Shown in pieces: positions 5,356 to 44,869 of a stretch of 64,000 nt of DNA. The stretch comes from Thermodesulfobacteriota bacterium (GTDB taxonomy: Bacteria > Desulfobacterota_D > UBA1144 > Nemesobacterales > CSP1-2): the NCBI GenBank assembly GCA_035559815.1, contig DATMAT010000057.1, positions 6,359 to 70,358 of the forward strand. The letters are read 5' to 3'. The notes beneath the pieces were generated by a model. The model saw only the letters and a program-made list of their open reading frames with translations. It did no database searches and was not told where the DNA came from. The translations under genes were made by a program, and so were the position numbers. The stretch's first letter is position 1. The number at the start of each line of letters is the position of its first letter.

Positions 5356-5511
5356 TTAACAGAGGAGGATACCGTCGAAGAAGTAGTGAAGAAGATGCTC
5401 CACTATGATATAAACCGTATCCCCATTGTTGATAAAGAGGGAAGACCAGTCGGAATAGTTGCTCGATACGACCTGCTTCGGCTGATTTCACCGGTTAACA
5501 AAACAAGATGA
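5311..5511 (+). CDS. Single CBS-domain protein (possibly a fragment)
   Basis: ITLTEEDTVEEVVKKMLHYDINRIPIVDKEGRPVGIVARYDLLRLI is a canonical CBS beta-alpha-beta-beta-alpha unit. It overlaps the open frame of the ATPase remnant, so one of the two is probably not expressed. Confidence 0.4.
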   Translation: MATSVKKMTSSPVITLTEEDTVEEVVKKMLHYDINRIPIVDKEGRPVGIVARYDLLRLISPVNKTR

Positions 5512-5674
5512 AAAACAATAAGCCTAGCCCAAGTAAAACTCTTTTCTTGGCGTGTTAAAAGTAGTTAAGTGGGTAGGTAAAAGTACTCTACCGAAGTACT
5601 TTTACCTACGGTAAACCTTTTATATTGTCGTCGGCAATCTTTAATGAATTTAAAAGCTTAAATCGGAAAAGTTT

Positions 5675-6115
5675 TCAATGGGCAGGGGCTTCTTCCGTTT
5701 CATGTTCCATCATCTCTTTCCCGTGCTCCATCATTTCCTCGCCTTCCTTCTTCATTTCTTCCGCTGCCTCCTCCATCTTTTCACCGGCTTCTTCCATCGC
5801 TTTACCGGTTTCCTCGGCTGCATCCTTTCCCATCTCGGCGGCATCTTCCATCGCTTCGCCGGCTTTCTCTGCAGCTTCCTCTGCCATTTCCGCCGCATCT
5901 TCAGCCGCACCTACTGCCGCCTTTCCAGCATCTTCCACCATCTCACCGGCTTTTTCTCCAGCTTCTTCCATTGCTTCGCCGGCTTTTTCCGCGCCTTCCT
6001 TCACCGCCTCACCCGCTTCTTCAGTCGGTTTCTCCGCCCTCTCCGGACAGGCGCTCAAACCCACTACAAAAACACCTACCGACAGCACGATAAAAAGCTT
6101 CTTGAAGATTGACAT
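5675..6115 (-). CDS. Acidic low-complexity lipoprotein with tandem roughly 11-aa (A/E/G/K/M) repeats and a Met/His-rich C-terminus
   Basis: The N-terminus is a signal peptide plus lipobox (VVGLSAC). The body is iterations of AGEAMEEAGEKAGE. The C-terminus is EEMMEHGKEMMEHETEE. The two plus-strand ORFs across the same DNA are mirror-frame artefacts of the nucleotide repeats. Confidence 0.6.
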   Translation of the reverse strand: MSIFKKLFIVLSVGVFVVGLSACPERAEKPTEEAGEAVKEGAEKAGEAMEEAGEKAGEMVEDAGKAAVGAAEDAAEMAEEAAEKAGEAMEDAAEMGKDAAEETGKAMEEAGEKMEEAAEEMKKEGEEMMEHGKEMMEHETEEAPAH

Positions 6116-6389
6116 GTCCTACCTCCTCCTTTAAGTATTTTCGCTATTCAATATTGAAAAAAAGCACAAAGTCAGAGCATTATGCAATTTGTGCACTAAT
6201 ATACACCATACCATTCCATTTTGTAAAGGCTTTAACCAACGACATGACCGTCGTCTATTTGCTTCAGAAAATTCGATGTTTAATCAGTCCGGAAAGCCAG
6301 ATAAAATTACAAACTAAGAGTCTTCGTTTAAGTGAATAGGATATCCCGCAGTGCTACTTTAGAGCGAACAACTTTAGGAGGGTCAAGCA

Positions 6390-7169
6390 ATGAAATTAGA
6401 CGGAAAGGTAGCCGTTGTAACCGGGGCGGCAAGCGGCATCGGACTGGCCATAGCCGAGGGACTAGCTAAAGAGGGTGTAAATATAACCATAGCCGATTTG
6501 GACGGTGAAGGAGGGAAGAAGGCTGTAGAGAAAATTCAAAAACTGGGTAGAGACGGTCTTTTCGTCAAAACCGATGTCACCAAGCGCGAGGACTGTAAGA
6601 ATCTAATCGCCGAGACCATGAAGAAGTTTGGTCGAATCGATATTCTGGTCAACAATGCCGGGCTACAGCACGTATCCCCGATCATTGATTTTCCGGAAGA
6701 GAAATGGGACCTGCTCATTGGGGTTATGATTACCGGCCCTTTCCTCTGCACCAAATATGCACTTCCACACATGATAAAACAAAAATGGGGAAGGATAATA
6801 AACATATCTTCCATACACGGGATTATTGCCGCTAAATTCAAATCCGCTTACGTTTCGGCAAAGCACGGCGTGATCGGTCTTACCAAGGTAACCGCGTTAG
6901 AGATGCTAGAACATGGAATAACCGCAAACGCTATATGCCCCACATTCGTGCGTACTCCACTCGTAGATAAACAGATAGACGACCAAGCCAAGGCCCACGG
7001 CATACCCAGGGAAGAAGTGCTCGAAAAGGTAATCCTGGCCGAGGCCCCTATGAAAAGGATGCTCGAACCGGAAGAGGTGGCAGACCTGGTTGTTTATTTG
7101 TCCGGCGAGTCGGCCCGTAACATCACCGGGTCGGCAATAACCATAGATGAGGGATGGACGGCGCAGTAA
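6390..7169 (+). CDS. SDR-family oxidoreductase, 3-hydroxybutyrate dehydrogenase-like
   Basis: TGAASGIGLAIA (cofactor-binding), NNAG, and the catalytic YVSAKHGVIGLTK (YxxxK) are all present. Length is 259 aa with a good RBS. Confidence 0.85.
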   Translation: MKLDGKVAVVTGAASGIGLAIAEGLAKEGVNITIADLDGEGGKKAVEKIQKLGRDGLFVKTDVTKREDCKNLIAETMKKFGRIDILVNNAGLQHVSPIIDFPEEKWDLLIGVMITGPFLCTKYALPHMIKQKWGRIINISSIHGIIAAKFKSAYVSAKHGVIGLTKVTALEMLEHGITANAICPTFVRTPLVDKQIDDQAKAHGIPREEVLEKVILAEAPMKRMLEPEEVADLVVYLSGESARNITGSAITIDEGWTAQ

Positions 7170-12957: not shown

Positions 12958-14619
12958 TTGACTGCTGACGGCAGCTACCTTACGAAATCACAAAGCATGA
13001 ACGAGCAGCGTAAAGAGAATTCAGCCTGGACCCCTCTCAAAGAACCTATTTTTCGAGCACTGTGGATCGCCACGGTTGCATCAAACATCGGTACTTGGAT
13101 GCAGGATGTGGGGGCAGCATGGCTTATGACTTCGCTAGCGCCGTCACCCCTAATGGTCGCATTGGTCGAGGTAGCCACAACCCTGCCCATGTTTATGCTC
13201 GCCCTTCCTGCTGGAGCTCTGGCGGACATAGTCGACCGACGCCGTCTTCTACTCATTACCCAGGGATGGATGTTAGTAGTAGCCGCCGGACTCGGCATAT
13301 TGACTCTATTCGGCATTACTACCCCGTGGCTTCTATTAGCCTTCACTTTCTTACTGGGTTTGGGCGCAGCCATGAATGCACCCGCCTGGCAGGCCATAGT
13401 ACCGGAGCTGGTAACGATTAAAGAAATACCGGCCGCGGTTGCTCTTAACAGCGTCGGGTTCAATATTTCTCGCGCTGTCGGGCCCGCTCTGGGAGGGCTC
13501 ATTGTCGCCGCTGCCGGAGCCTACGCAGCGTTTATCTTGAACGCTGTCACGTTTCTGGGAGTTATAGTTGTTCTTTATCGCTGGCGCCGTAAGCCTAGTG
13601 ATAGCGCATTGCCCTCCGAACGTTTATTCGGGGCAATGCGGGCCGGGCTTCGTTATGTACGCCAATCAGAGGCCCTTCGCTCGGTCCTGGTTAGGAGTGG
13701 AGTTTTTATAATCTTCGCCAGTGCCATGTGGGCGCTCATGCCCCTTGTTGCCAGAATAGAACTGGGACGCGGCCCAGCCGGATATGGAATGCTTCTTACC
13801 TCCTTTGGAGTGGGTGCGGTGCTTGGGGCAACCGTCTTGCCCGCTTTTAGAAGAAGAATTTCGATAGATACGGTTGTTGCTGGTGCGACGATCCTGTTCG
13901 CCCTGGTGCTCCTTTCGTTTGCCTACCTCCGTATTTTTAGTCTCTTGTGCGCTGTTACATTAGTCGGGGGAGCCATGTGGCTGACGCTTCTATCCAGCTT
14001 CAACACTGCGGTGCAGGCGTCCGTTCCCTCTTGGGTTAGGGCCAGGGCCTTGTCCGTATACCTCCTTGTTTTCTTTGGGGGTTTTGCCGGGGCGAGTACA
14101 GTCTGGGGCATTACGGCAACGCATCTGGGGATTTCGAACACATTCGTAATTTCCTCTATAGGGCTCGCCCTTGGACTTGCCCTCACTCGCCGCTACCGTC
14201 TGATAAAATTCGAGGGGCTAGACCTTTCTCCTACAAAGCGCTGGCCTGCGCCGACAATGGTTCATAAAGTGGAACCAGACCATGGACCGGTGCTTGTAAC
14301 GATTGATTATCGAATCGACCCGGCAAGGTCTCGTGATTTTGCAAGAGTAATGAAGGCGGTGAGCGCAATACGTCTGAGAGACGGCGCTATTCGCTGGAAT
14401 CTATTCAAGGACACGGAAGACCCGGGGCGGTACTTGGAAACCTTCATCGTCGAATCTTGGATTGAACACCTGAGACAGCACGAGCGCGTAACCATTTCGG
14501 ACCACGAAATTTTAGACCAAGCGCTTGCCTATCACACCGGTAATAAACCCCCGGTTGTCTCACATTTCATCGCAGAGCCGTTAACCAAATATTTAGAGGA
14601 GGAATCATCTGATGAGTAA
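12958..14619 (+). CDS. MFS transporter with a roughly 130-aa C-terminal soluble extension
   Basis: There are about 12 predicted TM helices and an MFS-like loop GAALGGLIV... The more likely start is the internal MNEQRK. The soluble C-terminus is VLVTIDYRIDPARSRDF... Confidence 0.75.
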   Translation: MTADGSYLTKSQSMNEQRKENSAWTPLKEPIFRALWIATVASNIGTWMQDVGAAWLMTSLAPSPLMVALVEVATTLPMFMLALPAGALADIVDRRRLLLITQGWMLVVAAGLGILTLFGITTPWLLLAFTFLLGLGAAMNAPAWQAIVPELVTIKEIPAAVALNSVGFNISRAVGPALGGLIVAAAGAYAAFILNAVTFLGVIVVLYRWRRKPSDSALPSERLFGAMRAGLRYVRQSEALRSVLVRSGVFIIFASAMWALMPLVARIELGRGPAGYGMLLTSFGVGAVLGATVLPAFRRRISIDTVVAGATILFALVLLSFAYLRIFSLLCAVTLVGGAMWLTLLSSFNTAVQASVPSWVRARALSVYLLVFFGGFAGASTVWGITATHLGISNTFVISSIGLALGLALTRRYRLIKFEGLDLSPTKRWPAPTMVHKVEPDHGPVLVTIDYRIDPARSRDFARVMKAVSAIRLRDGAIRWNLFKDTEDPGRYLETFIVESWIEHLRQHERVTISDHEILDQALAYHTGNKPPVVSHFIAEPLTKYLEEESSDE

Positions 14620-24566: not shown

Positions 24567-27392
24567 ATGATTGATTTTTCTTTCCTTCATCAAAAGAGCA
24601 TTAATTCCTATCTAGTCATAATGCTGATTACTTTATCTCTACCCTCGTGCGTAACGATAAAAAAAGCGGATATTAAAGTTCAGGACGAAGGAGCAGTACG
24701 GTTAATCACCGAAGGCGGGAAATTGTACGACCGGGGAAGATATGATGAAGCCCTGGGAAAATTCTCTGCGGCGGAGGCAGAGACCAGCTTGCCCCAGGAT
24801 AAAATTAGGATTGCGGACATATTATCCAAAGGCGGCTTCGACCTCTTCGAGAAAAAGCTCTTTGATGCTGCACTTTCCTACTACAACCAATCACTGAAGA
24901 TAAACAGGGTTTTAGATAACAAGCCGGGACTGGTTAATGACTACAGTTACATGGGAAGTATTTACACGGATATAGGAAAATACGACGAGGCGATCCTTCA
25001 CTTCAATCAGGCCATCGAACTGCAAAAGGACATGAATGATAAAGCCGGAGTAGTTCACAACCTGAATAACCTCGCCAATCTCCACGGCTACCTGGGCGAC
25101 TACCAGGAATCTATAAATCTTCTAAACCGGGCCCTTCAGATTAGCCGGAGCACCGACGTCCCGACCCAAACGGCAAGAACACTGATAAATCTTGCCGCTA
25201 TCGATTTTCGCCTGAGAAACTACGAAAAATCTATTGATTACCTAAACCAAGCACTTCAGATTGCGGATAGGGTAAAAAATGAAAACCTGAAAGCGGAAGC
25301 CCTAAACCTAACCGGCGTCGTCTACAGAGAGCAGGGTGAATTCGATAAGGCTTTAGCCAATTACCTTGCCGCGCTGAAAATCAACAAGAAAGAGGGCGTT
25401 GAAGCTGCAATCATAACCAGCCTTAGCACTATTGGCGAATTGTATAAGGAGACTGGAAGATACGGCCAAGCTCTTCAATACATTCAGGAATCTCTCCACC
25501 TGAGCAGGGAATCGAAAAACCAACTGATGACCGCCGTCAACCTGAATTACATGGGGGAGGTGAGATACAAGCAGGGAAAATACGACCAGGCTCTCAATCT
25601 TTACCAATCATCCTTGGGAATCTTTGAAGAGCTTGGGTTCAGGGACCGGATAGCCAGAAGCTACAACAACATCGGTTACCTGAGAGGGGAAACCGGGCAG
25701 TGGGATTCTGCGATCGAGAACCTGGATAAGGCCATCTCCATCTATAAAGACCTGGGAGACAGGGAGTGGGTCCGCATCTCTCTCTTTGGCCGGGGACTTT
25801 ATTCAGAAGAAAAAGGGGACCTTCTTTCCGCAGAAAAAAACTACAAGGAGGCCGTGGATATATTTGAATCGGTTAGAGAGGACGTCGCCGGGGGCCTGGA
25901 AGCAGAGCAAACCTTCAGCGACGTGAACGTGGAGATTTACGAGAGGCTGGTGTCATTGCTCCTGCGGCTTGGGAAAGACGAGGAAGCGCTCGAGTATATA
26001 GAAAGGAGCAGGTCAAAGAACCTCCGGGACACGTTTCTAAGGAGCGGTATCAGCTCTTTTGACGAGAGAACCAGGGGACTCCTTGAAAGATTTGATGAGC
26101 TTTTCAGAAAAGAGGCTTCCATAAACTACCAGTTGGTGAGGGAAAGAGCAAAGGCATTGCCTAACCCGGAGAAGATAGACAATTTAGTAAAAACATTGGC
26201 CAGGACTAGGGAAGAATTTATGAGAATAAATTCTGCTTTAGAGTCCGAAAATCCCAAGCTGTACGGCCTGCTCAGTATAAAACCGGAAGACGTTGCCGAA
26301 CTGGTAAAAAAGAATAGGCTCCCCGGAGACGTTATCTTTGTAGAGTACTTTATCACCGATAAAGAGACCTACATATTTCTCATGAGCGACAGGGACCTGA
26401 AGGTCAAGACCGTTTCTGCGAAGAAAGAGGAACTTGCAGAATTGGTCAAACTGTTTAGAGACCTGATAGAGCTTAATAAATCCATACCCAGCAACCGCTG
26501 GCGGGATGACCAGAGTGAGGAATACGAACAGGCTATAAAACCGCTCAAGAAGACATCATCGACCCTCTACGCCTACCTCATAGAGCCAATCGAGGCTGAG
26601 ATTGCCCCGGCCGAAACCATAGCCGTGATTCCCTTCGGCTCGCTCCATTACCTCCCATTCAACGCCTTGGCAAAAGAAAGGGATGACGGCACGTTGGAAT
26701 TTCTCATAGAAAGGAAGAAGCTCGTCTATATTGTTTCCGCCTCCGCCAATTACCTGGACGTAGTCCTGGGAAACGGCCGTAAAAGAGGAATCGAGAGTCT
26801 GGTTGCCTTTGGCAACCCGGACCTTGGGGAACCGGACCTCGCCCTTCCCTATTCCCAGGAGGAAGTTAAAGCCATAAAAACACTCTTTCCAAACGCCACC
26901 GTGTTCCTGGGAAAGGATGCTACCAAATATAATTTCGAGAGCAACTGGGGGGTGAATGACATAATCCATATGGCCACGCATGCAGTCGTCAAAGGAACGC
27001 CGTCAATACTCTTGGCCCCTTTAGGCACGGGCAGTCTTACCCTGAAAGACATTACCGGGCTGCCCCCTGCCGAGAACACCCATCTTGTGGTGCTCTCCGC
27101 GTGCCAGGCGGCGGTTGTAAGTGACGAAGACGGCCATGCTGCCGAGGAGCTAAACAGTATAGCTCTCGCTTTCAGCATGGTAGGCACCCCATCGGTTATT
27201 GCCACCCTCTGGAGGATAGAGGACAAAGCTACATTTGAGCTGATGGAGGATTTTTATGAGAATTTAAAGAAAGAGGGCAGATTCGATTACGAGGCGTTGA
27301 GAAGGGCACAGTTAGAGATGCTTAAGAGGCCGGATAAATACGGCCAGCCATTCTACTGGGCGCCCTTTATTCTTATGGGGGTATGGGAGTAG
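24567..27392 (+). CDS. TPR-repeat protein with a C-terminal CHAT (caspase-like) domain
   Basis: There is a signal/lipobox-like N-terminus (LSLPSC) and more than 12 TPR units. The C-terminal CHAT dyad is IIHMATHAV (His) with HLVVLSACQAAV (Cys). Length is 941 aa. Confidence 0.85.
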   Translation: MIDFSFLHQKSINSYLVIMLITLSLPSCVTIKKADIKVQDEGAVRLITEGGKLYDRGRYDEALGKFSAAEAETSLPQDKIRIADILSKGGFDLFEKKLFDAALSYYNQSLKINRVLDNKPGLVNDYSYMGSIYTDIGKYDEAILHFNQAIELQKDMNDKAGVVHNLNNLANLHGYLGDYQESINLLNRALQISRSTDVPTQTARTLINLAAIDFRLRNYEKSIDYLNQALQIADRVKNENLKAEALNLTGVVYREQGEFDKALANYLAALKINKKEGVEAAIITSLSTIGELYKETGRYGQALQYIQESLHLSRESKNQLMTAVNLNYMGEVRYKQGKYDQALNLYQSSLGIFEELGFRDRIARSYNNIGYLRGETGQWDSAIENLDKAISIYKDLGDREWVRISLFGRGLYSEEKGDLLSAEKNYKEAVDIFESVREDVAGGLEAEQTFSDVNVEIYERLVSLLLRLGKDEEALEYIERSRSKNLRDTFLRSGISSFDERTRGLLERFDELFRKEASINYQLVRERAKALPNPEKIDNLVKTLARTREEFMRINSALESENPKLYGLLSIKPEDVAELVKKNRLPGDVIFVEYFITDKETYIFLMSDRDLKVKTVSAKKEELAELVKLFRDLIELNKSIPSNRWRDDQSEEYEQAIKPLKKTSSTLYAYLIEPIEAEIAPAETIAVIPFGSLHYLPFNALAKERDDGTLEFLIERKKLVYIVSASANYLDVVLGNGRKRGIESLVAFGNPDLGEPDLALPYSQEEVKAIKTLFPNATVFLGKDATKYNFESNWGVNDIIHMATHAVVKGTPSILLAPLGTGSLTLKDITGLPPAENTHLVVLSACQAAVVSDEDGHAAEELNSIALAFSMVGTPSVIATLWRIEDKATFELMEDFYENLKKEGRFDYEALRRAQLEMLKRPDKYGQPFYWAPFILMGVWE

Positions 27393-37029: not shown

Positions 37030-37995
37030 TCAGACCGGGATACAACGCCCCGAATCGAAGAGGCAAGTCCAACCAGGTGGACAGCCACTGTTGCCACAAC
37101 ACGACCAACCCGGCGGAGCACACTTTGTGCCATTAGCACAGCAGGAGTGACCAGGCGGGCAGCAACCCCGCCCGCAACACACAGGAGCCCACGACGGACA
37201 GCAATGGTCGCCACAACACCGCTCACCAGATACGCAGCAGCGGTTGCCACAAGTCTGACCCGCCGGGCAACAACCACCGCCGGTGCATACTTCTCCTGGC
37301 CCACAGCAGTGATTGTTACAGACTCGACTAGGTGGACAGCAGCCCTCGATGGTGCACTGCTCTCCCGGAGCACAGCGACGGTTATTGCAGACTCGATCTG
37401 CAGGAGCACAGCCGTCCAGGGTGCACACTTCTTCCGGCGCACAACAACGCTCGTTGCAGACTCGATCTTTAGGGCAGAAGCCGTCCCTAGTGCACTGCTG
37501 CCCATCTGGCACATAACAACCGAAACCGAAGCAGCATCGTTGACCTGGCGGACAGCAGCTTAATGTATATCCGGTTGCCGTTTCATTAAGGATGTGGCAG
37601 CATTCATGGTCTCCCGGGCAACATTCCGGACGCTTTCCGATGCGCCCGCACAACTTCATTTCAGGTGGACAGAGAGGAGGAATGAACTCGCATTGGACCA
37701 AGCACTGTACTCTGCATTCATCACGCAGAATCGCGATTGGAACATCCGGATTATCAATGCGTCCAGCTTTGACGCAGGCACCTACGCAGCGATCAACACA
37801 GGGTTTTTTATGGCAATATTCCATGCACTGATGGTCAGGGTGGCCAGCCCTGAGGCAATCGTCCATACAACGATTCACACCGTTGTATGCCGGGTATATA
37901 GTCTCATTCACTTGGCTAGAAGTCCCAATAGTATAGTAGTGCCCGCTCGTTTTATAGAGTGACCCTTCTGCGGTAAATCCTGGTATCTTGTTCAT
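37030..37995 (-). CDS. Leader-family precursor protein, member 4: 321-aa extremely Cys-rich protein
   Basis: The leader is MNKIPGFTAEGSLYKTSGHYY. About 300 aa follow with more than 60 Cys in iterated C-x4-5-C / CCPPG / CAPxxxC units (...CCGPGEVCTGGGCCPAGQTCGNRCCVSGERCCGDHCC...). Confidence 0.8.
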   Translation of the reverse strand: MNKIPGFTAEGSLYKTSGHYYTIGTSSQVNETIYPAYNGVNRCMDDCLRAGHPDHQCMEYCHKKPCVDRCVGACVKAGRIDNPDVPIAILRDECRVQCLVQCEFIPPLCPPEMKLCGRIGKRPECCPGDHECCHILNETATGYTLSCCPPGQRCCFGFGCYVPDGQQCTRDGFCPKDRVCNERCCAPEEVCTLDGCAPADRVCNNRRCAPGEQCTIEGCCPPSRVCNNHCCGPGEVCTGGGCCPAGQTCGNRCCVSGERCCGDHCCPSWAPVCCGRGCCPPGHSCCANGTKCAPPGWSCCGNSGCPPGWTCLFDSGRCIPV

Positions 37996-38064: not shown

Positions 38065-38403
38065 CTAAGTTCGAGTAGGGCTGCATCCTTTGAGGCATTC
38101 TCGATAATTCTCATCGCAGATAATACAGTGGGTAGATCCCTTCGGGTTTTCAGGCGTGCCTTCACAACCCTCCAAACACAGGACCCAGGCTATATAGCAA
38201 AGACCTCTACAAAGCGAACGCCCGATCCCGCCAAAAAGCCCAGAACCGGGCGATACAGGTAATGGATTAATAGTCAGTTGAGAAATAACTCTTTGCCCAC
38301 AGTTGCTATAAGCTTGCATCGCTATAGACTGGTACTGCTCACTCGTCTTATAAACCGATGCCTCTGCTGTGAATCCCGGTGTTTTCATTTCATCAACCCC
38401 CAT
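38065..38403 (-). CDS. Leader-family precursor protein, member 5
   Basis: The leader is M(GVDE)MKTPGFTAEASVYKTSEQYQ. The core has 10 Cys (...SLCRGLCYIAWVLCLEGCEG...HCIICDENYRECLKGC). Confidence 0.75.
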   Translation of the reverse strand: MGVDEMKTPGFTAEASVYKTSEQYQSIAMQAYSNCGQRVISQLTINPLPVSPGSGLFGGIGRSLCRGLCYIAWVLCLEGCEGTPENPKGSTHCIICDENYRECLKGCSPTRT

Positions 38404-38441: not shown

Positions 38442-38693
38442 TTAGGCCATTCCCCCGCCACCACAGACCCCAAAGCACGCACCGCACGTCAAAAAATCTC
38501 CTGGGTCTGGCACAGGCGACATAACAAGGAAAGCCGCACAGGCTAGGCAAGCGGTCATGCAAAACCTGCTTCTGAACATCGCCGGAACGATCCCACTTTC
38601 TTTCATATCCGAACTATAAGAAACCGTATATCGTCCAGTAGACCTGTATACAGAGGTTTCTGCAGTAAATCCAGGCAAATTCATTTTACTCAT
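38442..38693 (-). CDS. Leader-family precursor protein, member 6 (83 aa from the internal start)
   Basis: The leader is MSKMNLPGFTAETSVYRSTGRYT. The core is hydrophobic with 7 Cys and ends GGGGMA. The RBS GGAGGTGAATAAA precedes the ATG at 38693. The longer ORF to 38768 would overlap member 7. Confidence 0.75.
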   Translation of the reverse strand: MSKMNLPGFTAETSVYRSTGRYTVSYSSDMKESGIVPAMFRSRFCMTACLACAAFLVMSPVPDPGDFLTCGACFGVCGGGGMA

Positions 38694-38748: not shown

Positions 38749-39135
38749 TTACCAGCCGAACCCGACACCTAGCTCGGTGTCGCAGGTCGTATCTGGCACG
38801 TCCCATTCACCCCAAATATTAAACCAAGTGTTTTTACACCGGTCTGGAGGCCGACCTTCAAGACCCGGAGTCGTTCGACAAGCTTCTTCCCACGATACGC
38901 CCCAAGGGATACCCCACAATATGGCTGAAAACTGTCGCCGTCCGCAGCCTGACCCTTCCGTCCACCAACAGCCGCGCTTAGTACAGTGATCTCTCTTGAA
39001 GCTACCCCAGGTCTGGGCCGGCACAAGGCGTCCCATTTCCGTCGGCATGTACTGAAAACCCGCTCGATACTGATGGCTCCCGCGATATAGCGAAGCCTTT
39101 GCGGTAAATCCAGGTATTTTGTTCATTTCATTCAC
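38749..39135 (-). CDS. Leader-family precursor protein, member 7 (Trp-rich core)
   Basis: The leader is M(NEM)NKIPGFTAKASLYRGSHQYR. The core has 11 Trp and 6 Cys (...RGCWWTEGSGCGRRQFSAILWGIPWGVSWEEAC...). Confidence 0.75.
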   Translation of the reverse strand: MNEMNKIPGFTAKASLYRGSHQYRAGFQYMPTEMGRLVPAQTWGSFKRDHCTKRGCWWTEGSGCGRRQFSAILWGIPWGVSWEEACRTTPGLEGRPPDRCKNTWFNIWGEWDVPDTTCDTELGVGFGW

Positions 39136-39177
39136 CTCCTTTTTTCACTCCCTCACCAGACCCTAGAGACCGAACAC

Positions 39178-39597
39178 TCAGATCAGGGTGCAGAAAGAAG
39201 GACTACATCCTATGAAGGGTGCACATATTCTCCTGCACTTTGTCCCCGCCGGACAACAGCCCTCGTTATTACAGCAGGACGTACCGGGCGGGCAACAACC
39301 ACGAGCACAGCAAGGATGACCAGGGGGACAAGAGTGGGTGCCGCAGTTGGGTCGAGGTGGAGGAGGTGGGGGTGGAGTACAAGATACTTCTTTACAAATA
39401 GGTCCTCCTGTTTCTGGGTCATATCCAAAGCAACAGGTCTTCTGCCCATTTTCACATGGCGTGCACCCTTTAATCTGTTGTAGTACTAAGCCGCTAACTG
39501 ACTTGCTAGTCCAAGTCGATTCAAGCGCATAAATCCCAGCCGTCCTGTAGAGCGAAGCCTCTGCGGCAAATCCCGGCATTTTGCTCATTTGACTCAC
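39178..39597 (-). CDS. Leader-family precursor protein, member 8 (20-Cys core with a poly-Pro linker)
   Basis: The leader is M(SQ)MSKMPGFAAEASLYRTAGIY. The core is ...CTPPPPPPPRPNCGTHSCPPGHPCCARGCCPPGTSCCNNEGCCPAGTKC... The RBS is GGAGGTGAGTCAA. Confidence 0.8.
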   Translation of the reverse strand: MSQMSKMPGFAAEASLYRTAGIYALESTWTSKSVSGLVLQQIKGCTPCENGQKTCCFGYDPETGGPICKEVSCTPPPPPPPRPNCGTHSCPPGHPCCARGCCPPGTSCCNNEGCCPAGTKCRRICAPFIGCSPSFCTLI

Positions 39598-39657
39598 CTC
39601 CTTTCTCTTTTTCCTCCGTCCGTATAGAATTCACCTGATAAACCGCCGCGGTCTCAA

Positions 39658-40041
39658 CTAGTCAATCGCTACCAAGCTGTCAACACAGTCACGCCACGGC
39701 TCACTTGCCGGCACCCAACCCCAATAGCAGCCAGGCGGTTCAGGACAGATCTTTGCATACTTAAACCATTGGCATATCCGGCACTCGGTTTGAAAAGTCA
39801 GACCCCAAAATTTCCATGTGCTGGTCGTTTTATCCCAGCACAATTTTTTCATCGTAAACACTACGCCCGGCATTGATGTTGGCACGTCAACGGTAGATAG
39901 TGTGCCCATCAGTCCCTGGGTAAGAACCAACGCACCTACTCTCACGCCTGCACGATTCGGGGCTACTGCATAGCTCATGGCTGATTTGTAGAGCGAGACC
40001 TCTGCTGTAAACTCAGGCAATTTCATTTCCTTCACCTCCAT
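39658..40041 (-). CDS. Leader-family precursor protein, member 9 (Trp/Cys core)
   Basis: The leader is M(EVKE)MKLPEFTAEVSLYKSAMSY. The core is ...LCWDKTTSTWKFWGLTFQTECRICQWFKYAKICPEPPGCYWGW... The RBS is GGAGGTGAAGGAA. Confidence 0.75.
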   Translation of the reverse strand: MEVKEMKLPEFTAEVSLYKSAMSYAVAPNRAGVRVGALVLTQGLMGTLSTVDVPTSMPGVVFTMKKLCWDKTTSTWKFWGLTFQTECRICQWFKYAKICPEPPGCYWGWVPASEPWRDCVDSLVAID

Positions 40042-40061: not shown

Positions 40062-41057
40062 TCACCGATCATAATACGGCGACATCTTTGTAACCAGGAA
40101 CGGAAACTCCTCGGTCACATCCACACGGGTAAAGAACTTCTCGGTAACGTCCGTCTGACGATTGGTGAAGGAGAAAATGACATCTACAACCTTGCGTGTG
40201 CCGCTGAGAGGCGAATGACGAACTTCTACCGCTGTCAAAGAAGAGTTTTGAGCAAAAGCCTCCGCAGCTTTAGCATAGATGGCGTTGTATCGTACTGCCA
40301 GATAGTTTAAAGCACGGTGGTCGTCAGTGGCTCCGGCATTGTCAGCTATCTGCATTATCCTCATGAATAGCTCCTCTGCTGCTGGGGTGAACTCCTTTGC
40401 TGACATCTTTTCCGGCTTAGGAATAGATTTGATTAGAGAATCGATATCGAATGAATACATCTGGTCGAACACAACAATAGGCACCATGAGTCCATTGCAC
40501 ATCTCTGGCGGGGCGATTGGCCCTCTCATGCCAATAACCACATCAACATCAGTGGGGCGTGGAGCGGGACGTAAGGCCTCCACTAACATATCCAGGTCCG
40601 CAGGGTCGCGCGGCACCAGAATGTATGTCTCCAAACCCTCAATGGTTAAAACCCAGCACATCTGTCTCACCAGGTAGCGGTTCTGTCTATGGGTCAGAAC
40701 CTTGTGGAGTGCCTCTCGGTCGGTAAGCCCGGCTGTCTTTTCCCGCCCTGTAACTTGGGCGAATTCCTTCTCCACAGCTAAACGAGGAAAGCGGGCCTCG
40801 ACCCTGCCCAGGGCATAAACGAAGCTGGGTGTAACTCCGCCATTTGACCCGGTGGAGCTTCCGCATGTAGGACACCCTCCCCCTCCAGCTTGGGTGGGAA
40901 GAATAGTTCCAGTACGACTTTCAGAAGAGGATACTACTGTTGGTGAGTCTTTCACGTTAACGGCTTGCTCTCCCATCTGTTCCTTCGATTCAACATTTTC
41001 TTCCATGATATTTCTCCTCCTTTCAGGATAGATTTCAAAGGCTTCATAATTAGCCAC
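40062..41057 (-). CDS. Hypothetical 331-aa protein associated with the precursor cluster (Ser/Gly-rich N-terminal linker, GGGGCPTCGSS, then an about 230-aa globular domain)
   Basis: It sits between S8 peptidase 2 and the seven-precursor array in the same orientation. Its C-terminal 15 residues (EFPFLVTKMSPYYDR) are identical to the tail of S8 peptidase 1. Confidence 0.6.
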   Translation of the reverse strand: MANYEAFEIYPERRRNIMEENVESKEQMGEQAVNVKDSPTVVSSSESRTGTILPTQAGGGGCPTCGSSTGSNGGVTPSFVYALGRVEARFPRLAVEKEFAQVTGREKTAGLTDREALHKVLTHRQNRYLVRQMCWVLTIEGLETYILVPRDPADLDMLVEALRPAPRPTDVDVVIGMRGPIAPPEMCNGLMVPIVVFDQMYSFDIDSLIKSIPKPEKMSAKEFTPAAEELFMRIMQIADNAGATDDHRALNYLAVRYNAIYAKAAEAFAQNSSLTAVEVRHSPLSGTRKVVDVIFSFTNRQTDVTEKFFTRVDVTEEFPFLVTKMSPYYDR

Positions 41058-41199: not shown

Positions 41200-41418
41200 T
41201 TATCTCGAACGCCTGCCAGAGAAAACCAGCCAACCGTTGAGTGTGGAGGCGCGACGTTCACATCCGCCACACGGTTTAATCCCAATAGTAGACGTGACTC
41301 GCTTAATCGCATCACCCAGTCCAATTTCCTCATCGCTAATGAAACCAGGAAGACGAACCCGGTAAGGCTGTCCTTTAGTCTTACTTCTTTGACCATTTCT
41401 TGTTTCTTCCTTTTTCAT
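41200..41418 (-). CDS. Small ORF (about 72 aa) with an RLPGF motif and a C-terminal CGGC
   Basis: MKKEETRNGQRSKTKGQPYRVRLPGFISDEEIGLGDAIKRVTSTIGIKPCGGCERR... The RBS is AGGTGA, 5 nt upstream. The PGF spacing partly echoes the family leader. Confidence 0.35.
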   Translation of the reverse strand: MKKEETRNGQRSKTKGQPYRVRLPGFISDEEIGLGDAIKRVTSTIGIKPCGGCERRASTLNGWLVFSGRRSR

Positions 41419-41598: not shown

Positions 41599-42510
41599 TC
41601 ACCTCCTTAAACCAGACCTTATAATCTGATACGCCCCCCATGCATCAAGCAAGGGTGGAACTACCGTATTTCTCCTTCGCCCGTTCGACCGTGTAATCAC
41701 GACTTTCATATCAGCACCGGTAGCTTTTGGGAACTCTGACCAAAGCAGCGCAATAGCCCCCGTCACAAAGGGAGCCGCAGCGCTCGTTCCGCTGAACGTG
41801 AGTGGTTTGCCATCGGCTCCGAGGCTAGTAATGTTGTCGCCGGGGGCGCTCAGACCTCGTCTCCCTATCGAATTTCCCAGATTGGAGTAACTAATCGGTC
41901 TACCCTGAAGGTCACAGGCAACGACCGGGATAACCCAAGGGTGACGGGTGATAACAGTGCTACCAACTGCTCCCTGATTTCCCGCCGCTGCTACAATCAA
42001 AACGCCTCTCTTTGATGCATAATTCAAAGCCCCTACTAACTCTCGTTCACCTGTGGAAGATAGCTGCGCCATAGCTGCACTCAGGTTTATCACGTGCGCT
42101 CCCGCATCAATGGTCTCGATTAATGCCGCTGCTAGTTCATCGGGAGTGGTACTGGGCATGGGCTCTAGATGCTGGCTGCGGCTATTTCCATTTCCTGACA
42201 TCGTCTCAGCAAAAATAGGACGCACCAACAACGTGCAATCAGGACAGATAGCCGGAGCTACAGAACCCCTCTTTCCGCACAAAATTCCTGCCACGAATGT
42301 TCCATGCAAACAGGCGACACTACTTGCCTGTGCACATGCACCCGCAAGTTTTCCAGGGACCTCACGAATGTCTCCACCTGAAAGATCCGGATGGTCTAAT
42401 AACACGGGCCCGTCAATCAGACCAACTACTATCTCTGGCCTCCCGCTGGCAATATCCATCAAAGCGGTGAGCCTGATTAAATCCAGATGATTCATGCGTG
42501 GATTCCTCAC
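41599..42510 (-). CDS. S8 subtilisin-like serine peptidase 2 (full length, no signal or pro-domain)
   Basis: VGLIDGPV (Asp), HGTFVAGILCG (His), GTSAAAPFVTGAIALL (Ser). Length is 303 aa. It shares more than 60% identity with peptidase 1 across the catalytic core. Confidence 0.85.
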   Translation of the reverse strand: MRNPRMNHLDLIRLTALMDIASGRPEIVVGLIDGPVLLDHPDLSGGDIREVPGKLAGACAQASSVACLHGTFVAGILCGKRGSVAPAICPDCTLLVRPIFAETMSGNGNSRSQHLEPMPSTTPDELAAALIETIDAGAHVINLSAAMAQLSSTGERELVGALNYASKRGVLIVAAAGNQGAVGSTVITRHPWVIPVVACDLQGRPISYSNLGNSIGRRGLSAPGDNITSLGADGKPLTFSGTSAAAPFVTGAIALLWSEFPKATGADMKVVITRSNGRRRNTVVPPLLDAWGAYQIIRSGLRR

Positions 42511-42753
42511 CTCAACCCAGTGATAGGAGTTAAAAACTAGATAAAGACTAAAGGAGAACGAGTACTTACAGTTAATCTTTCAAGTGAGCAGAAATAAACA
42601 ACCGGCGGTTATCGTTAATAACCTGATGTTGTGGACAGAAGTTGCTTAGGCTCTTTATAGTTATTGCTCTCCCTCTCAGGGTGATTATAGGCCTAGTCAA
42701 AAAGTAAAGTCAAGCAAAATTTTGACCGAGTAAAAAAATGGCCTATGTAAAAA

Positions 42754-43695
42754 TCAACTGCCCGCCAGAGCCTTAATCATGATCTTCATCACCTCGACAT
42801 TGCTCTGCTTTCCCACCGGGTTTGGGACGATGATCGGAAGTTGAACCCCTGCTTCTCTGTAAGCCTCGAGTCTTTCACGGCACCTTTCGGCAGGGCCAAC
42901 CAAAGCCACCGCGTCCAGTAGGTCATCGGAAAACGCCTCGGCTGGGCTTACACCAGATTTAATCTTCTCCACCACATCGCCAAATCCTAAGTTTGTAATC
43001 AAGCGCTGGTAGAAAGGAAAGCGGGCATAGCCGGAAAGACCGCGCTTTCCGGCGTTTCTGGCAGCTTCCAAGTCGTCGGAGATAAAACAAGGGATTCCAT
43101 TGGTGATGTCGATATCCGAAGGAGCACGGCCGGCCTTTTCCGCACCTCTTTTAACCGCGCCTATCAGCTTCTTCAAATGACCGGGAGTAGCCATATAGGG
43201 CATGATGCCGTCTGCTACCTCGCCGGCCAGTTCCGCCGCTTTTTCGGTCAGCACCGCCGTGTATATCGGGAGATAAGGGAGTTGTCTTTTGATTGTCAAG
43301 AGTGGCGAGCTTCCATCAGCGAAGGACCTGACCGCTGTCACATATTTTCGCATTTCCTCGATCGGGTCTTTCATGTCAATTCCGAAGCGGTCATTCACCG
43401 GCTTATGACTGACACCCAACCCAAGCACCATCCTTCCGCCTGAAATTTCCTGAACAGTAAGGGCCTCGGCCGCACATATAACCGGCTGGCGCATGTAGAT
43501 ATTGGTTATCCATGTACCCACTTTAATTTTCGAGGTCGCCTCGGCAAAAACCTGGGCGTTAGCCAGGGCGCTGTAGGGTGGCACCTCCGGGGAAAATATC
43601 GCCTCGAATCCCCCAGCCTCCGCTTCTTTGGCTAAAGCGCGAAGGTCGTCTACGCTGCATCCCCATACCGGTGAAATGGTCGCTATCCGTTTCAT
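42754..43695 (-). CDS. LLM-class (luciferase-like) flavin/F420-dependent oxidoreductase
   Basis: 313 aa with a TIM-barrel LLM pattern (...GGFEAIFSPE..., GRMVLGLGVSH). Confidence 0.75.
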   Translation of the reverse strand: MKRIATISPVWGCSVDDLRALAKEAEAGGFEAIFSPEVPPYSALANAQVFAEATSKIKVGTWITNIYMRQPVICAAEALTVQEISGGRMVLGLGVSHKPVNDRFGIDMKDPIEEMRKYVTAVRSFADGSSPLLTIKRQLPYLPIYTAVLTEKAAELAGEVADGIMPYMATPGHLKKLIGAVKRGAEKAGRAPSDIDITNGIPCFISDDLEAARNAGKRGLSGYARFPFYQRLITNLGFGDVVEKIKSGVSPAEAFSDDLLDAVALVGPAERCRERLEAYREAGVQLPIIVPNPVGKQSNVEVMKIMIKALAGS

Positions 43696-43975: not shown

Positions 43976-44869
43976 CTAATACTGATTAATCACATCCCGG
44001 TAAAAATCGGGGCGGAGCAAAGACTCATCTCCTCTTTCCAAGACCGCTCTTATCTCTTCCAAGACCCTTTCCTTATCCTGGGGGAATCTTGCTTTGATAG
44101 GAAGATAATTAGAGATGTGATTCGAAAAGAAATACCCGTCAGTCAGGTTTGTATTCTCGACGATAATTTCTAGCTCTTTTATCATCTGAAACTTATCCGG
44201 GAGTTTGAACTTTCCGTCAAGCCACTCCTGGTAAATCGGAGCCCCCGGGCGGACCTGAAGGGAAAGTGCCCCTACATACTCAGGGTCAGTATCGGTCAAG
44301 AGCCTTCCGGTCGCATATGCATGCTCAAGGCTTCTATCCACCCCGCCAACCCCGAGAAGAACCATGGCCGAGTTTTTGACCCCGGCCTCTTTAAGGATTT
44401 TTGATGCTCTTACCGTCTCCTCGTAATTTGCCCCTTTTTTAATCCTTTCTAGAACTATATCGTCTCCGCTTTCAAATCCGATGTAAACCATCTCCAACCC
44501 GAGGTCCCTCAGCACTTTTAAATTCTCAGCTCCTTTTCTCAGGATGTCGCTAACGTTTGCATACATGGTAATTCGCTGCAAGTCCGGACGTTTCTCCTTT
44601 AAATACTGCAAAATCTCGACCAGCTTTTTCTGGGGCATGACCAGGGCGTTGCCATCGGCGATGAACACCCGGTTGAAATCATATCTCTCCACAGCTTCAT
44701 CAATAATAGTCTTGATCTCATCTATGGGGCGCATACGAAACCTTTGGGTATCTTTCCGATACATGGCGCAGTAGGTGCACTCGTTATGAGAGCAGCCTAT
44801 CGTAGCCTGAAGGATGAAGCTATTTGCCTCGCTGGGAGGCCGGAAAAGCGGCATGGAATATTCAATCAT
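43976..44869 (-). CDS. Radical SAM protein (compact, no SPASM extension)
   Basis: The CxxxCxxC cluster is IGCSHNECTYCAMY. GFESGDD is a glycine-rich SAM motif. Length is 297 aa. Confidence 0.8.
   Translation of the reverse strand: MIEYSMPLFRPPSEANSFILQATIGCSHNECTYCAMYRKDTQRFRMRPIDEIKTIIDEAVERYDFNRVFIADGNALVMPQKKLVEILQYLKEKRPDLQRITMYANVSDILRKGAENLKVLRDLGLEMVYIGFESGDDIVLERIKKGANYEETVRASKILKEAGVKNSAMVLLGVGGVDRSLEHAYATGRLLTDTDPEYVGALSLQVRPGAPIYQEWLDGKFKLPDKFQMIKELEIIVENTNLTDGYFFSNHISNYLPIKARFPQDKERVLEEIRAVLERGDESLLRPDFYRDVINQY

Follow-up and report, generated by a model that had tools for sequence, protein, structure and literature searches.

A cysteine-rich gene missed by public gene calls in a Thermodesulfobacteriota bacterium and its place in a tagged family linked to a PatA-like protease cassette

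The DNA analysed here (the window) is a 64,000-nucleotide stretch from a Thermodesulfobacteriota bacterium (assembly GCA_035559815.1, contig DATMAT010000057.1, positions 6,359 to 70,358 of the forward strand; positions given below are those of the window unless another contig is named). An open reading frame (ORF) at 37030–37995 on its minus strand raises two questions, i.e. whether so repetitive and cysteine-rich a sequence encodes a protein at all and, if so, what kind of product is made from it. An earlier reading of the letters alone (the sequence-only reading) had assigned the ORF to a leader-bearing family, described its body as a repetitive array of granulin-like cysteine modules, and offered two possible products, namely a polyprotein cut into many small peptides and a metal-binding sponge, while pointing out that other frames across the ORF stay open. 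The position, the length (321 amino acids), and the sequence that it quoted match an ORF of the window exactly. This ORF is a genuine protein-coding gene under purifying selection, which has been missed by public gene calls. It belongs to an unnamed superfamily of tagged proteins, probably precursors, that is tied to a three-gene cassette, and its product is probably matured as a single cargo pinned by disulfides.

The worry about the reading frame was justified. Over 13.2 kb, the window matches a Logan contig from SRR7882662 at 100% identity, and the gene calls on this identical contig comprise 37011–37505 (minus strand, another frame) and 37606–37962 (plus strand) instead of the 321-codon gene. 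If either of these ORFs were the true coding frame, the long ORF would be a by-product of a GC-rich repeat, and open runs of 176 and 177 codons are indeed present in frame +1 and in the reverse frame of the window gene, respectively. These frames are open only in part (six stops in frame +1 and two in the reverse frame), and 2–12 stops are found in them in the window gene and most homologues. Their partial openness arises because TGY, CCN, and GGN codons cannot make stops in those registers. In the window gene and in the three homologous genes with DNA (at loci L015, L017, and L010), the tagged frame is the only open frame, and the other five frames contain up to 21 stops. The sequence-only reading had proposed to decide the frame by the ratio of nonsynonymous to synonymous substitution rates (dN/dS) and by a search for frame-disrupting indels among orthologues. 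In comparison with the closest homologue, at L015 (protein P0001; 62% amino acid identity over 265 codons), dN/dS is 0.23, which indicates purifying selection, and the differences at codon positions 1, 2, and 3 (0.25, 0.27, and 0.49, respectively) gather at the third positions of the tagged frame. Breaks of the frame were found only in the distant L013 and perhaps in L009, and the other homologues are intact. The ORF also goes far beyond what chance would give. In addition, dozens of proteins keep the tag together with the cysteine columns, and there is scarcely any chance that one of the Logan ORFs is the coding frame. No version of the 321-amino acid protein is present in a 15-billion-protein collection, and nothing in it exceeds 57% identity; the protein is absent from the protein records because its gene was mis-called.

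The protein begins with MNKIPGFTAEGSLYKTS and contains 58 Cys (18%), 38 Gly, and 32 Pro, as well as 26 aromatic or His residues (8 Tyr, 6 Phe, 3 Trp, and 9 His). All 58 cysteines were counted over the 281 post-tag residues, and the figure of more than 60 given previously is therefore too high. That the body of the protein is a repetitive array of cysteine modules was borne out, but the protein does not consist almost entirely of such modules: residues 1–38 are the tag, residues 41–105 form a helical CX3C domain, and the ladder covers only residues ~109–321 (Table 1). Residues 5–20 (PGFTAEGSLYKTSGHY) fit the family pattern PGFTAExSLYKTSxxY within the first 25 residues, and a second tag motif, ETIYPAY, occupies residues 31–37. 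The CX3C pattern of the following domain constitutes the entire core of many short family members, e.g. P0039 and P0040. The cysteines of the block at residues 109–168 are spaced C-x6-C-x8-CC-x5-CC-x13-CC-x5-CC-x4-C-x7-C, and from residue 184 the ladder starts with three clear 23-amino acid copies (CCAPEEVCTLDGCAPADRVCNNR, RCAPGEQCTIEGCCPPSRVCNNH, and CCGPGEVCTGGGCCPAGQTCGNR), beyond which degenerate CC-x3-6-CC units were seen when the sequence was printed in a 23-residue register. At the nucleotide level, Tandem Repeats Finder reported a period of 69 nucleotides with 1.9 copies at 37340–37468.

The structure predicted by AlphaFold2 from a 14-sequence alignment has a mean predicted local distance difference test (pLDDT) score of 76.7, which exceeds 90 over residues 120–240. 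In this model, the tag is disordered, three helices lie within residues 40–101, and short paired strands run without a break from residue 113 to approximately residue 290; when residues 107–171 (65 residues) were modelled alone, a pLDDT of 90 and six strands were obtained. A contiguous stack of this kind, modelled with high confidence, is not what would be expected of a ladder that is cut between its modules into many small disulfide-rich peptides in the manner of multi-core cyanobactin or cyclotide precursors. Such a polyprotein is suggested by the repetitive 23-amino acid unit of the body and by the neighbouring protease family, which handles multi-core precursors in cyanobactin pathways (PMC10885120). 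Nevertheless, the modules abut without linkers, no recognition sequence is found beside them, the two motifs of the tag have no internal copies in the protein, and the N-terminal two-fifths of the cargo is non-repetitive. The comparison of repeat units that had been proposed for this purpose revealed no regular cleavage sites between modules, since only three dibasic sites are present (KK at 63, KR at 121, and RR at 206) and none of them recurs periodically. The RR pair at 206–207 is kept in close homologues, but R207 fills a cysteine position of the repeat and not a linker. A polyprotein is thus very unlikely, and the gene most likely gives a single rigid protein with a disulfide ladder, which is modelled as one continuous stack, rather than many peptides.

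The proposed likeness to granulin extends only to the cysteine pattern. Residues 109–168 follow the 12-cysteine order of granulin (C,C,CC,CC,CC,CC,C,C) with a CCPxG motif and are predicted to form a stack of β-hairpins, whereas the loop lengths of the block (x8, x5, x13, x5, x4, x7) differ from those of granulin; in the rest of the ladder, CC takes turns with single C, which is not the granulin arrangement. The Pfam Granulin model (PF00396) gave no match to the protein at E ≤ 1. A profile search of the PDB returned Granulin-5 at E = 0.5, and hhalign returned a probability of 29.7% over 23 columns with a hand-written granulin profile that was validated against PDB granulins at 2e-25. Foldseek did not retrieve granulin, its weak and non-significant matches being other disulfide-rich ladders, e.g. 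R-spondin furin repeats and TNFR domains. A claim of homology with granulin was dropped because the profile comparison was too weak for it.

The tag that places the protein in a family is shared by nine minus-strand ORFs of the window, namely the 321-codon gene and the eight paralogues in Table 1, in agreement with the assignment to a leader family. A profile of the tag matched 2099 proteins at E ≤ 1 among 5.8 billion, and the 119 best of these 2099 matches have a median length of 76 amino acids. In a 142-member profile aligned on PGF, the defining positions of P-G-F-T-A-E-x-S-L-Y-K-T-S-x-x-Y are 83–100% conserved; positions +27 to +32 after PGF hold a second, less conserved motif, G-x-(V/I)-x-P-(A/Q), beyond which conservation collapses and the cysteines start. 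The C-termini of the family are variable and do not carry AYDG. Among the window paralogues, the 139-amino acid protein has a tail motif in common with the 321-amino acid protein (BLASTP, 2e-16). Another is a phospholipase A2 of the secreted type with an intact Ca loop (YGNYCGPGFG) and a His-Asp active site (CREHDLCY), which indicates that the tag also carries an enzyme, beyond small peptides. The 321-amino acid protein is the largest member of the tagged family seen, and other large tagged members with CCPxxxxCC units were found in Brocadia (233 amino acids, 32 Cys) and in a cyanobacterium (231 amino acids, 34 Cys).

Relatives of the 321-amino acid protein itself are few. A word-indexed search yielded 13 homologues (P0001–P0013; 32–57% identity), and an exhaustive phmmer search with residues 41–321 against 1.84 billion representatives yielded only 56 proteins. 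The cysteine columns are invariant across 14 homologues, and the leader-bearing relatives keep the same tag in addition to these columns. The sole non-family proteins from the exhaustive search, P0162, P0176, P0179, and P0180, contain long arrays of the 23-amino acid repeat in the same register as residues 184–252, but they have neither the tag nor the cassette. P0162 has a signal peptide, P0176 a C-terminal membrane anchor, and P0179 a GH5 cellulase domain before the repeat. No Pfam model covers the 23-amino acid repeat, and a search of the 321-amino acid protein and five paralogues with Pfam and NCBIfam returned no family, i.e. no model for either tag or cargo.

The precursor genes of the window follow three genes on the same strand, in the order S8 protease gene, 72-codon gene, and gene for a domain of unknown function (DUF) of the cyanobactin type (42510 to 40062). 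The S8 protein scores 113 bits against TIGR03895, far under the curated cut-off of 421. Its closest solved structures are the N-terminal cyanobactin proteases PagA and PatA (~1e-30), the PatG macrocyclase being much more distant (1e-14), and both S8 copies of the window resemble PatA and not the PatG macrocyclase. The 72-codon gene recurs at ~70–75% nucleotide identity in >20 loci that represent many phyla, and its variation falls on every third base. A structured RNA had been considered for the interval between the S8 and DUF genes, but this candidate was dropped when the region proved to be a small protein-coding gene; nothing relevant was found by Rfam over 32–44 kb. The 72-amino acid protein has no Pfam or NCBIfam match, its RLPGF sequence resembles the MPGF of the tag, and the Logan gene calls place an ORF in another frame at this position. 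The DUF protein (NCBI VNN20_14345) matches PDB 4uvq at 1e-5 and belongs to a family of at least 8000 protein clusters at E ≤ 1e-20, which, among the matches listed, bear labels no more informative than 'hypothetical protein' or names derived from Pfam or PatG.

The linkage of the tagged family to this cassette is tight. A scan of a genome collection with the tag gave 39 loci, in Acidobacteriota, Verrucomicrobia, Nitrosospira, Nitrosomonas communis, Nitrospira, Brocadia, Chloroflexota, Rokubacteria, several cyanobacteria, and the archaeon Methanoperedens. S8 and DUF genes are located directly upstream and co-oriented in ~35 of the 39 loci; their products are 45–78% identical to those of the window, and the DUF protein alone is 60–78% identical across phyla. 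For the S8 gene by itself, a position upstream of tagged genes was counted in ~33 of the 39 loci. The same order of cassette and precursor genes is also found in L001, L017, and L057. In two independent contexts (the contigs of P0003, and L017), the gene that comes directly after the DUF gene is a large cysteine-rich homologue of the 321-amino acid protein. Plasmids of Sinorhizobium mexicanum, Mesorhizobium, and Streptomyces carry the cassette as well. When the flanks of the loci were clustered all against all, no recurrent gene family emerged beyond the cassette and the precursors. Three contigs from archaeal metagenome-assembled genomes (Candidatus Methanoperedens; L035, L037, and L044) carry the full cassette and tagged precursors, with DUF and S8 proteins ~60–66% identical to those of the window, which implies either inter-domain transfer or mis-binning.

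Just upstream of the cassette and on the same strand, the window encodes an F420/LLM-class oxidoreductase (42754–43695, minus strand) and a 297-amino acid radical S-adenosylmethionine (SAM) protein (43976–44869, minus strand). Cysteine-rich cores are typical substrates of radical SAM enzymes, as in ranthipeptides and sactipeptides. The 321-amino acid protein might accordingly be a very large ribosomally made peptide with post-translational modifications (RiPP), the cysteines of which are converted by such an enzyme to thioethers, thiazolines, or other cross-links, and the derivation of the protease and the DUF from a RiPP pathway is in line with this idea. However, neither enzyme is met again beside the cassette, whether among the 39 genome loci or on other contigs, and both were rejected as parts of the system for this reason. 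The sole Pfam match of the radical SAM protein is the Radical_SAM core, and no heterocyclase was found among the scanned ORFs of the window. Enzymatic modification of the cysteines is thus improbable, although we would give it slightly more weight than a polyprotein.

The state of the cysteines can also be approached from their numbers. In the tagged family, 4, 6, and 8 cysteines are found in 43, 30, and 24 members, respectively, and the count is even in 102 of the 110 members with at least two cysteines (93%; binomial p = 7e-22). Counts are likewise even in 8 of the 9 window paralogues and in 13 of the 15 large homologues. Cys197 and Cys207, which lie in adjacent half-units of the ladder, are both present in three sequences and both absent in nine. 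A metal sponge, as proposed previously, would be a giant metallothionein-like buffer with reduced cytoplasmic cysteines that chelate Zn, Cu, or Cd or hold Fe-S clusters, with the tag and the protease controlling activation or turnover. The high cysteine content with its many CC and C-x-n-C motifs, the cytoplasmic appearance of the tag and all cassette proteins with no linked exporter or oxidase, and the anaerobic life of some hosts would suit such a protein, and the solved PatG DUF reportedly binds zinc. Yet the prevalence of even counts, sixes included, is a poor fit to Cys4 sites, and cysteines 197 and 207 come and go as a pair. In the model, the body consists of well-ordered β-hairpins, and with its 26 aromatic or His residues it differs from metallothioneins, for which no match was found in Pfam or NCBIfam. 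Moreover, a secreted-type phospholipase A2 is carried under the same tag, and the repeat occurs in signal-peptide proteins and in a cellulase. The even parity, the co-variation of the cysteine pair, the ordered and aromatic-rich model, the repeat in proteins with secretion signals, and the tagged phospholipase A2 together favour disulfides, and the metal sponge is unlikely, although less so than the RiPP. The 321-amino acid protein resembles metallothioneins and keratin-associated proteins in its very high cysteine content and CC doublets, whereas its size, its predicted order, its wealth of aromatic residues, and its tag set it apart from them, and it has no match to these families.

The closest known relatives of the cassette are found in cyanobactin pathways. 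The S8 protease of the window is closest to PagA/PatA, and the DUF protein is built of PatG_D and PatG_C. As with PatE-type precursors of cyanobactins, the tagged precursors are short and lie in clusters, a conserved N-terminus is followed by a hypervariable part, and the AE(A)S of the tag resembles the PatA signal G(L/V)E(A/P)S. In contrast to cyanobactin loci, the protease and the DUF are encoded by separate genes with a conserved 72-codon gene between them, and the window cassette lacks a PatG macrocyclase, a heterocyclase, an oxidase, a prenyltransferase, and an AYDG-type C-terminal signal. The cargos are cysteine-rich domains of 25–280 amino acids, and even a phospholipase A2 enzyme, unlike the 6–20-residue cores of cyanobactins, and the hosts are drawn from many phyla and include an archaeon, unlike those of cyanobactins. 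In the searchable literature, to which most subscription journals do not belong, no description of the tag or of a PF18047/PF18065 or cyanobactin-like cysteine-rich system was found. The parts are known (S8 leader peptidases, the cyanobactin DUF, and cysteine-ladder domains), but their combination appears to be unnamed in Pfam, NCBIfam, and PADLOC.

Based on these features, a maturation pathway can be proposed for the 321-amino acid protein. The precursor would be synthesised with its non-hydrophobic N-terminal tag and the hypervariable cysteine-rich cargo behind it, and the cassette would recognise the invariant N-terminal motif. The cleavage site of PatA-like enzymes follows G(L/V)E(A/P)S (PMC10885120), and the S8 protease may remove the tag at one of two places, namely behind AE(A/T/V/G)S or at the boundary marked by hhP(A/Q) near residues 36–38. 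The cargo of ~280 amino acids would then fold as a unit that comprises the helical CX3C domain and the long β-hairpin ladder, and cysteine parity, co-variation, and the model suggest that ~29 disulfides might be formed. The mature product may be a stable protein with a toxin-like or binding function that acts outside the cytoplasm; this role, as well as the release that it presupposes, is suggested by the neighbouring genes for small knotted peptides and phospholipase A2.

Several observations weigh against this pathway or against the disulfide-pinned cargo that it would produce. No signal peptide is present in the S8, DUF, and 72-amino acid proteins, and the tag does not represent one either. 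The search for an exporter detected only a distant MFS gene in the window (12958–14619), and no exporter or thiol oxidase that could serve a 58-cysteine protein is conserved with the cassette across the loci. Several host lineages (Brocadia, Methanoperedens, and Thermodesulfobacteriota) are anaerobes, in which disulfide chemistry is less expected. The choice between the two candidate cleavage motifs is ambiguous, and TAE(A/T/V/G)S, which occurs once in the 321-amino acid protein (residues 8–12), precedes the variable region by 25 residues instead of adjoining it. The cysteine count is odd in two of the large homologues (P0001, 43 Cys; P0006, 47 Cys), and the alignments behind the AlphaFold2 models are shallow (14 and 6 sequences). 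Finally, one or two genes from soil metagenomes, which belong to a more distant P0009/P0011-like branch (L013, 926–1841, and perhaps L009, 1932–3064, of the same project series), are split across frames, and these splits represent either assembly errors or pseudogenes.

Table 1. Features of the 321-codon gene, its tagged paralogues, and the associated cassette in the window
Feature	Position	Strand	Details and basis
Tagged cysteine-rich gene	37030..37995	-	321 aa; stop codon 37030-37032; ORF list, homologues, open-frame test
N-terminal tag (residues 1-38)	37882..37995	-	MNKIPGFTAEGSLYKTSGHYY...ETIYPAY; 142-member family profile; disordered in AlphaFold2
Helical CX3C domain (residues 41-105)	37681..37875	-	10 Cys at i/i+4; AlphaFold2 helices 40-49, 54-81, 87-101
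12-cysteine block (residues 109-168)	37492..37671	-	Read from sequence; AlphaFold2 of the block alone
Hairpin ladder (residues 184-321)	37033..37446	-	23-aa period CC-x5-C-x4-CC-x5-C-x3; AlphaFold2 short paired strands throughout
Tagged paralogue	39658..40041	-	127 aa, 6 Cys
Tagged paralogue	39178..39597	-	139 aa, 20 Cys; CCPPGTSCC / CCPAGTKC units
Tagged paralogue	38749..39135	-	128 aa, 6 Cys
Tagged paralogue	38442..38693	-	83 aa from MSKMNL; identical to P0045, NCBI VNN20_14335 (Thermodesulfobacteriota metagenome-assembled genome)
Tagged paralogue	38065..38403	-	112 aa
Tagged paralogue	36682..36930	-	82 aa from MNKMNQMKMPGF; 4 Cys; next downstream of the 321-codon gene
Tagged paralogue with phospholipase A2 cargo	33621..34103	-	Pfam PF00068 (3e-6), PF08398 (3.6e-5)
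Tagged paralogue	33180..33536	-	118 aa, 8 Cys
PatA-like S8 serine peptidase	41599..42510	-	No signal peptide; Pfam Peptidase_S8 (2.5e-27), TIGR03895 (1.2e-32)
72-aa CxxC gene	41200..41418	-	...PYRVRLPGFISDEEIGLGD...PCGGCERRA...; between the S8 and DUF genes
Stand-alone PatG_D + PatG_C (cyanobactin DUF) protein	40062..41057	-	Pfam PF18047 (1.4e-32), PF18065 (5.5e-35)
Decayed second cassette	34119..34925	-	S8 paralogue joined to the final 49 nt of a DUF gene
Promoter-like TTGACT-18-TATAAT	42684..42713	-	Upstream of the S8 gene; 11/12 consensus positions

The decayed second cassette can be traced to the intact one by nucleotide identity: 34159–34925 is 73% identical to 41729–42495, and 34119–34167 is 88% identical to 40062–40110. 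Its protein and the DUF protein end in a common C-terminus, FPFLVTKMSPYYDR. The S8 C-terminus, the 72-codon gene, and most of the DUF gene are missing from this copy, which is followed by two more tagged genes. Between the decayed and intact cassettes, the array of precursor genes is interrupted by four small genes without cysteine-rich cargo (35269–36540, minus strand), one of which is AF2212-like (PF01954) in the Logan annotation; this block may be an inserted toxin–antitoxin-like module. The promoter-like sequence upstream of the S8 gene provides only a positional hint, since the total number of such sites in the region does not exceed that expected by chance. PADLOC detected only a generic subtilase and thus did not indicate a known defence system. 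A TPR-CHAT protein is encoded ~15 kb from the cassette (24567–27392, plus strand), and in L001 the S8 gene is directly preceded, on its upstream side, by a gene for a TPR protein (5421–6938); the presence of TPR proteins near these two cassettes may be a coincidence.

Gene calls are incomplete for other members of the system as well. Between VNN20_14335 (38442–38693) and VNN20_14345, the DUF gene, there is room for one annotated gene where three tagged ORFs are located (38749–40041), and the gene table of the Sinorhizobium record omits a 73-amino acid gene and at least four tagged genes. The tagged family is systematically under-annotated. Cys/Pro/Gly-rich genes keep other frames open and are mis-called, a blind spot of annotation through which this class is under-represented in protein databases.

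A broader interpretation, which we put forward only tentatively, is that the cassette and its tagged cargos constitute a widespread, horizontally mobile, and hitherto undescribed system for diversifying and maturing disulfide-rich effectors, i.e. a prokaryotic counterpart of the venom superfamilies of animals. The cyanobactin protease module would then be just one specialised offshoot within a far larger group of machines that remove tags. Like conotoxins and other venom superfamilies, the tagged family combines a near-invariant tag with a hypervariable core containing an even number of cysteines (4, 6, 8), and its paralogues are arrayed at one locus in a repertoire that includes a phospholipase A2. 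Unlike venom superfamilies, its hosts are prokaryotic, its tag is not a signal peptide, and it is linked to a cytoplasmic-looking protease cassette, so that the resemblance is an analogy of design and not homology. In such a system, the cargos would extend from 25-residue knots via phospholipase A2 to a granulin-patterned ladder of ~280 residues.

If the assignment of the 321-amino acid protein to a cassette-linked precursor superfamily is correct, PatA-type proteases and the enigmatic PatA/PatG DUF would work far beyond cyanobactin chemistry, with thousands of unannotated cysteine-rich precursors as substrates in soil, nitrogen-cycle, and cyanobacterial lineages and in an archaeon. The DUF and its new 72-amino acid partner would thereby gain a testable context. 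The tagged family would represent a sizeable library, provided by nature, of compact disulfide scaffolds, some of them possibly toxins, and the 321-amino acid protein would mark its upper size limit.

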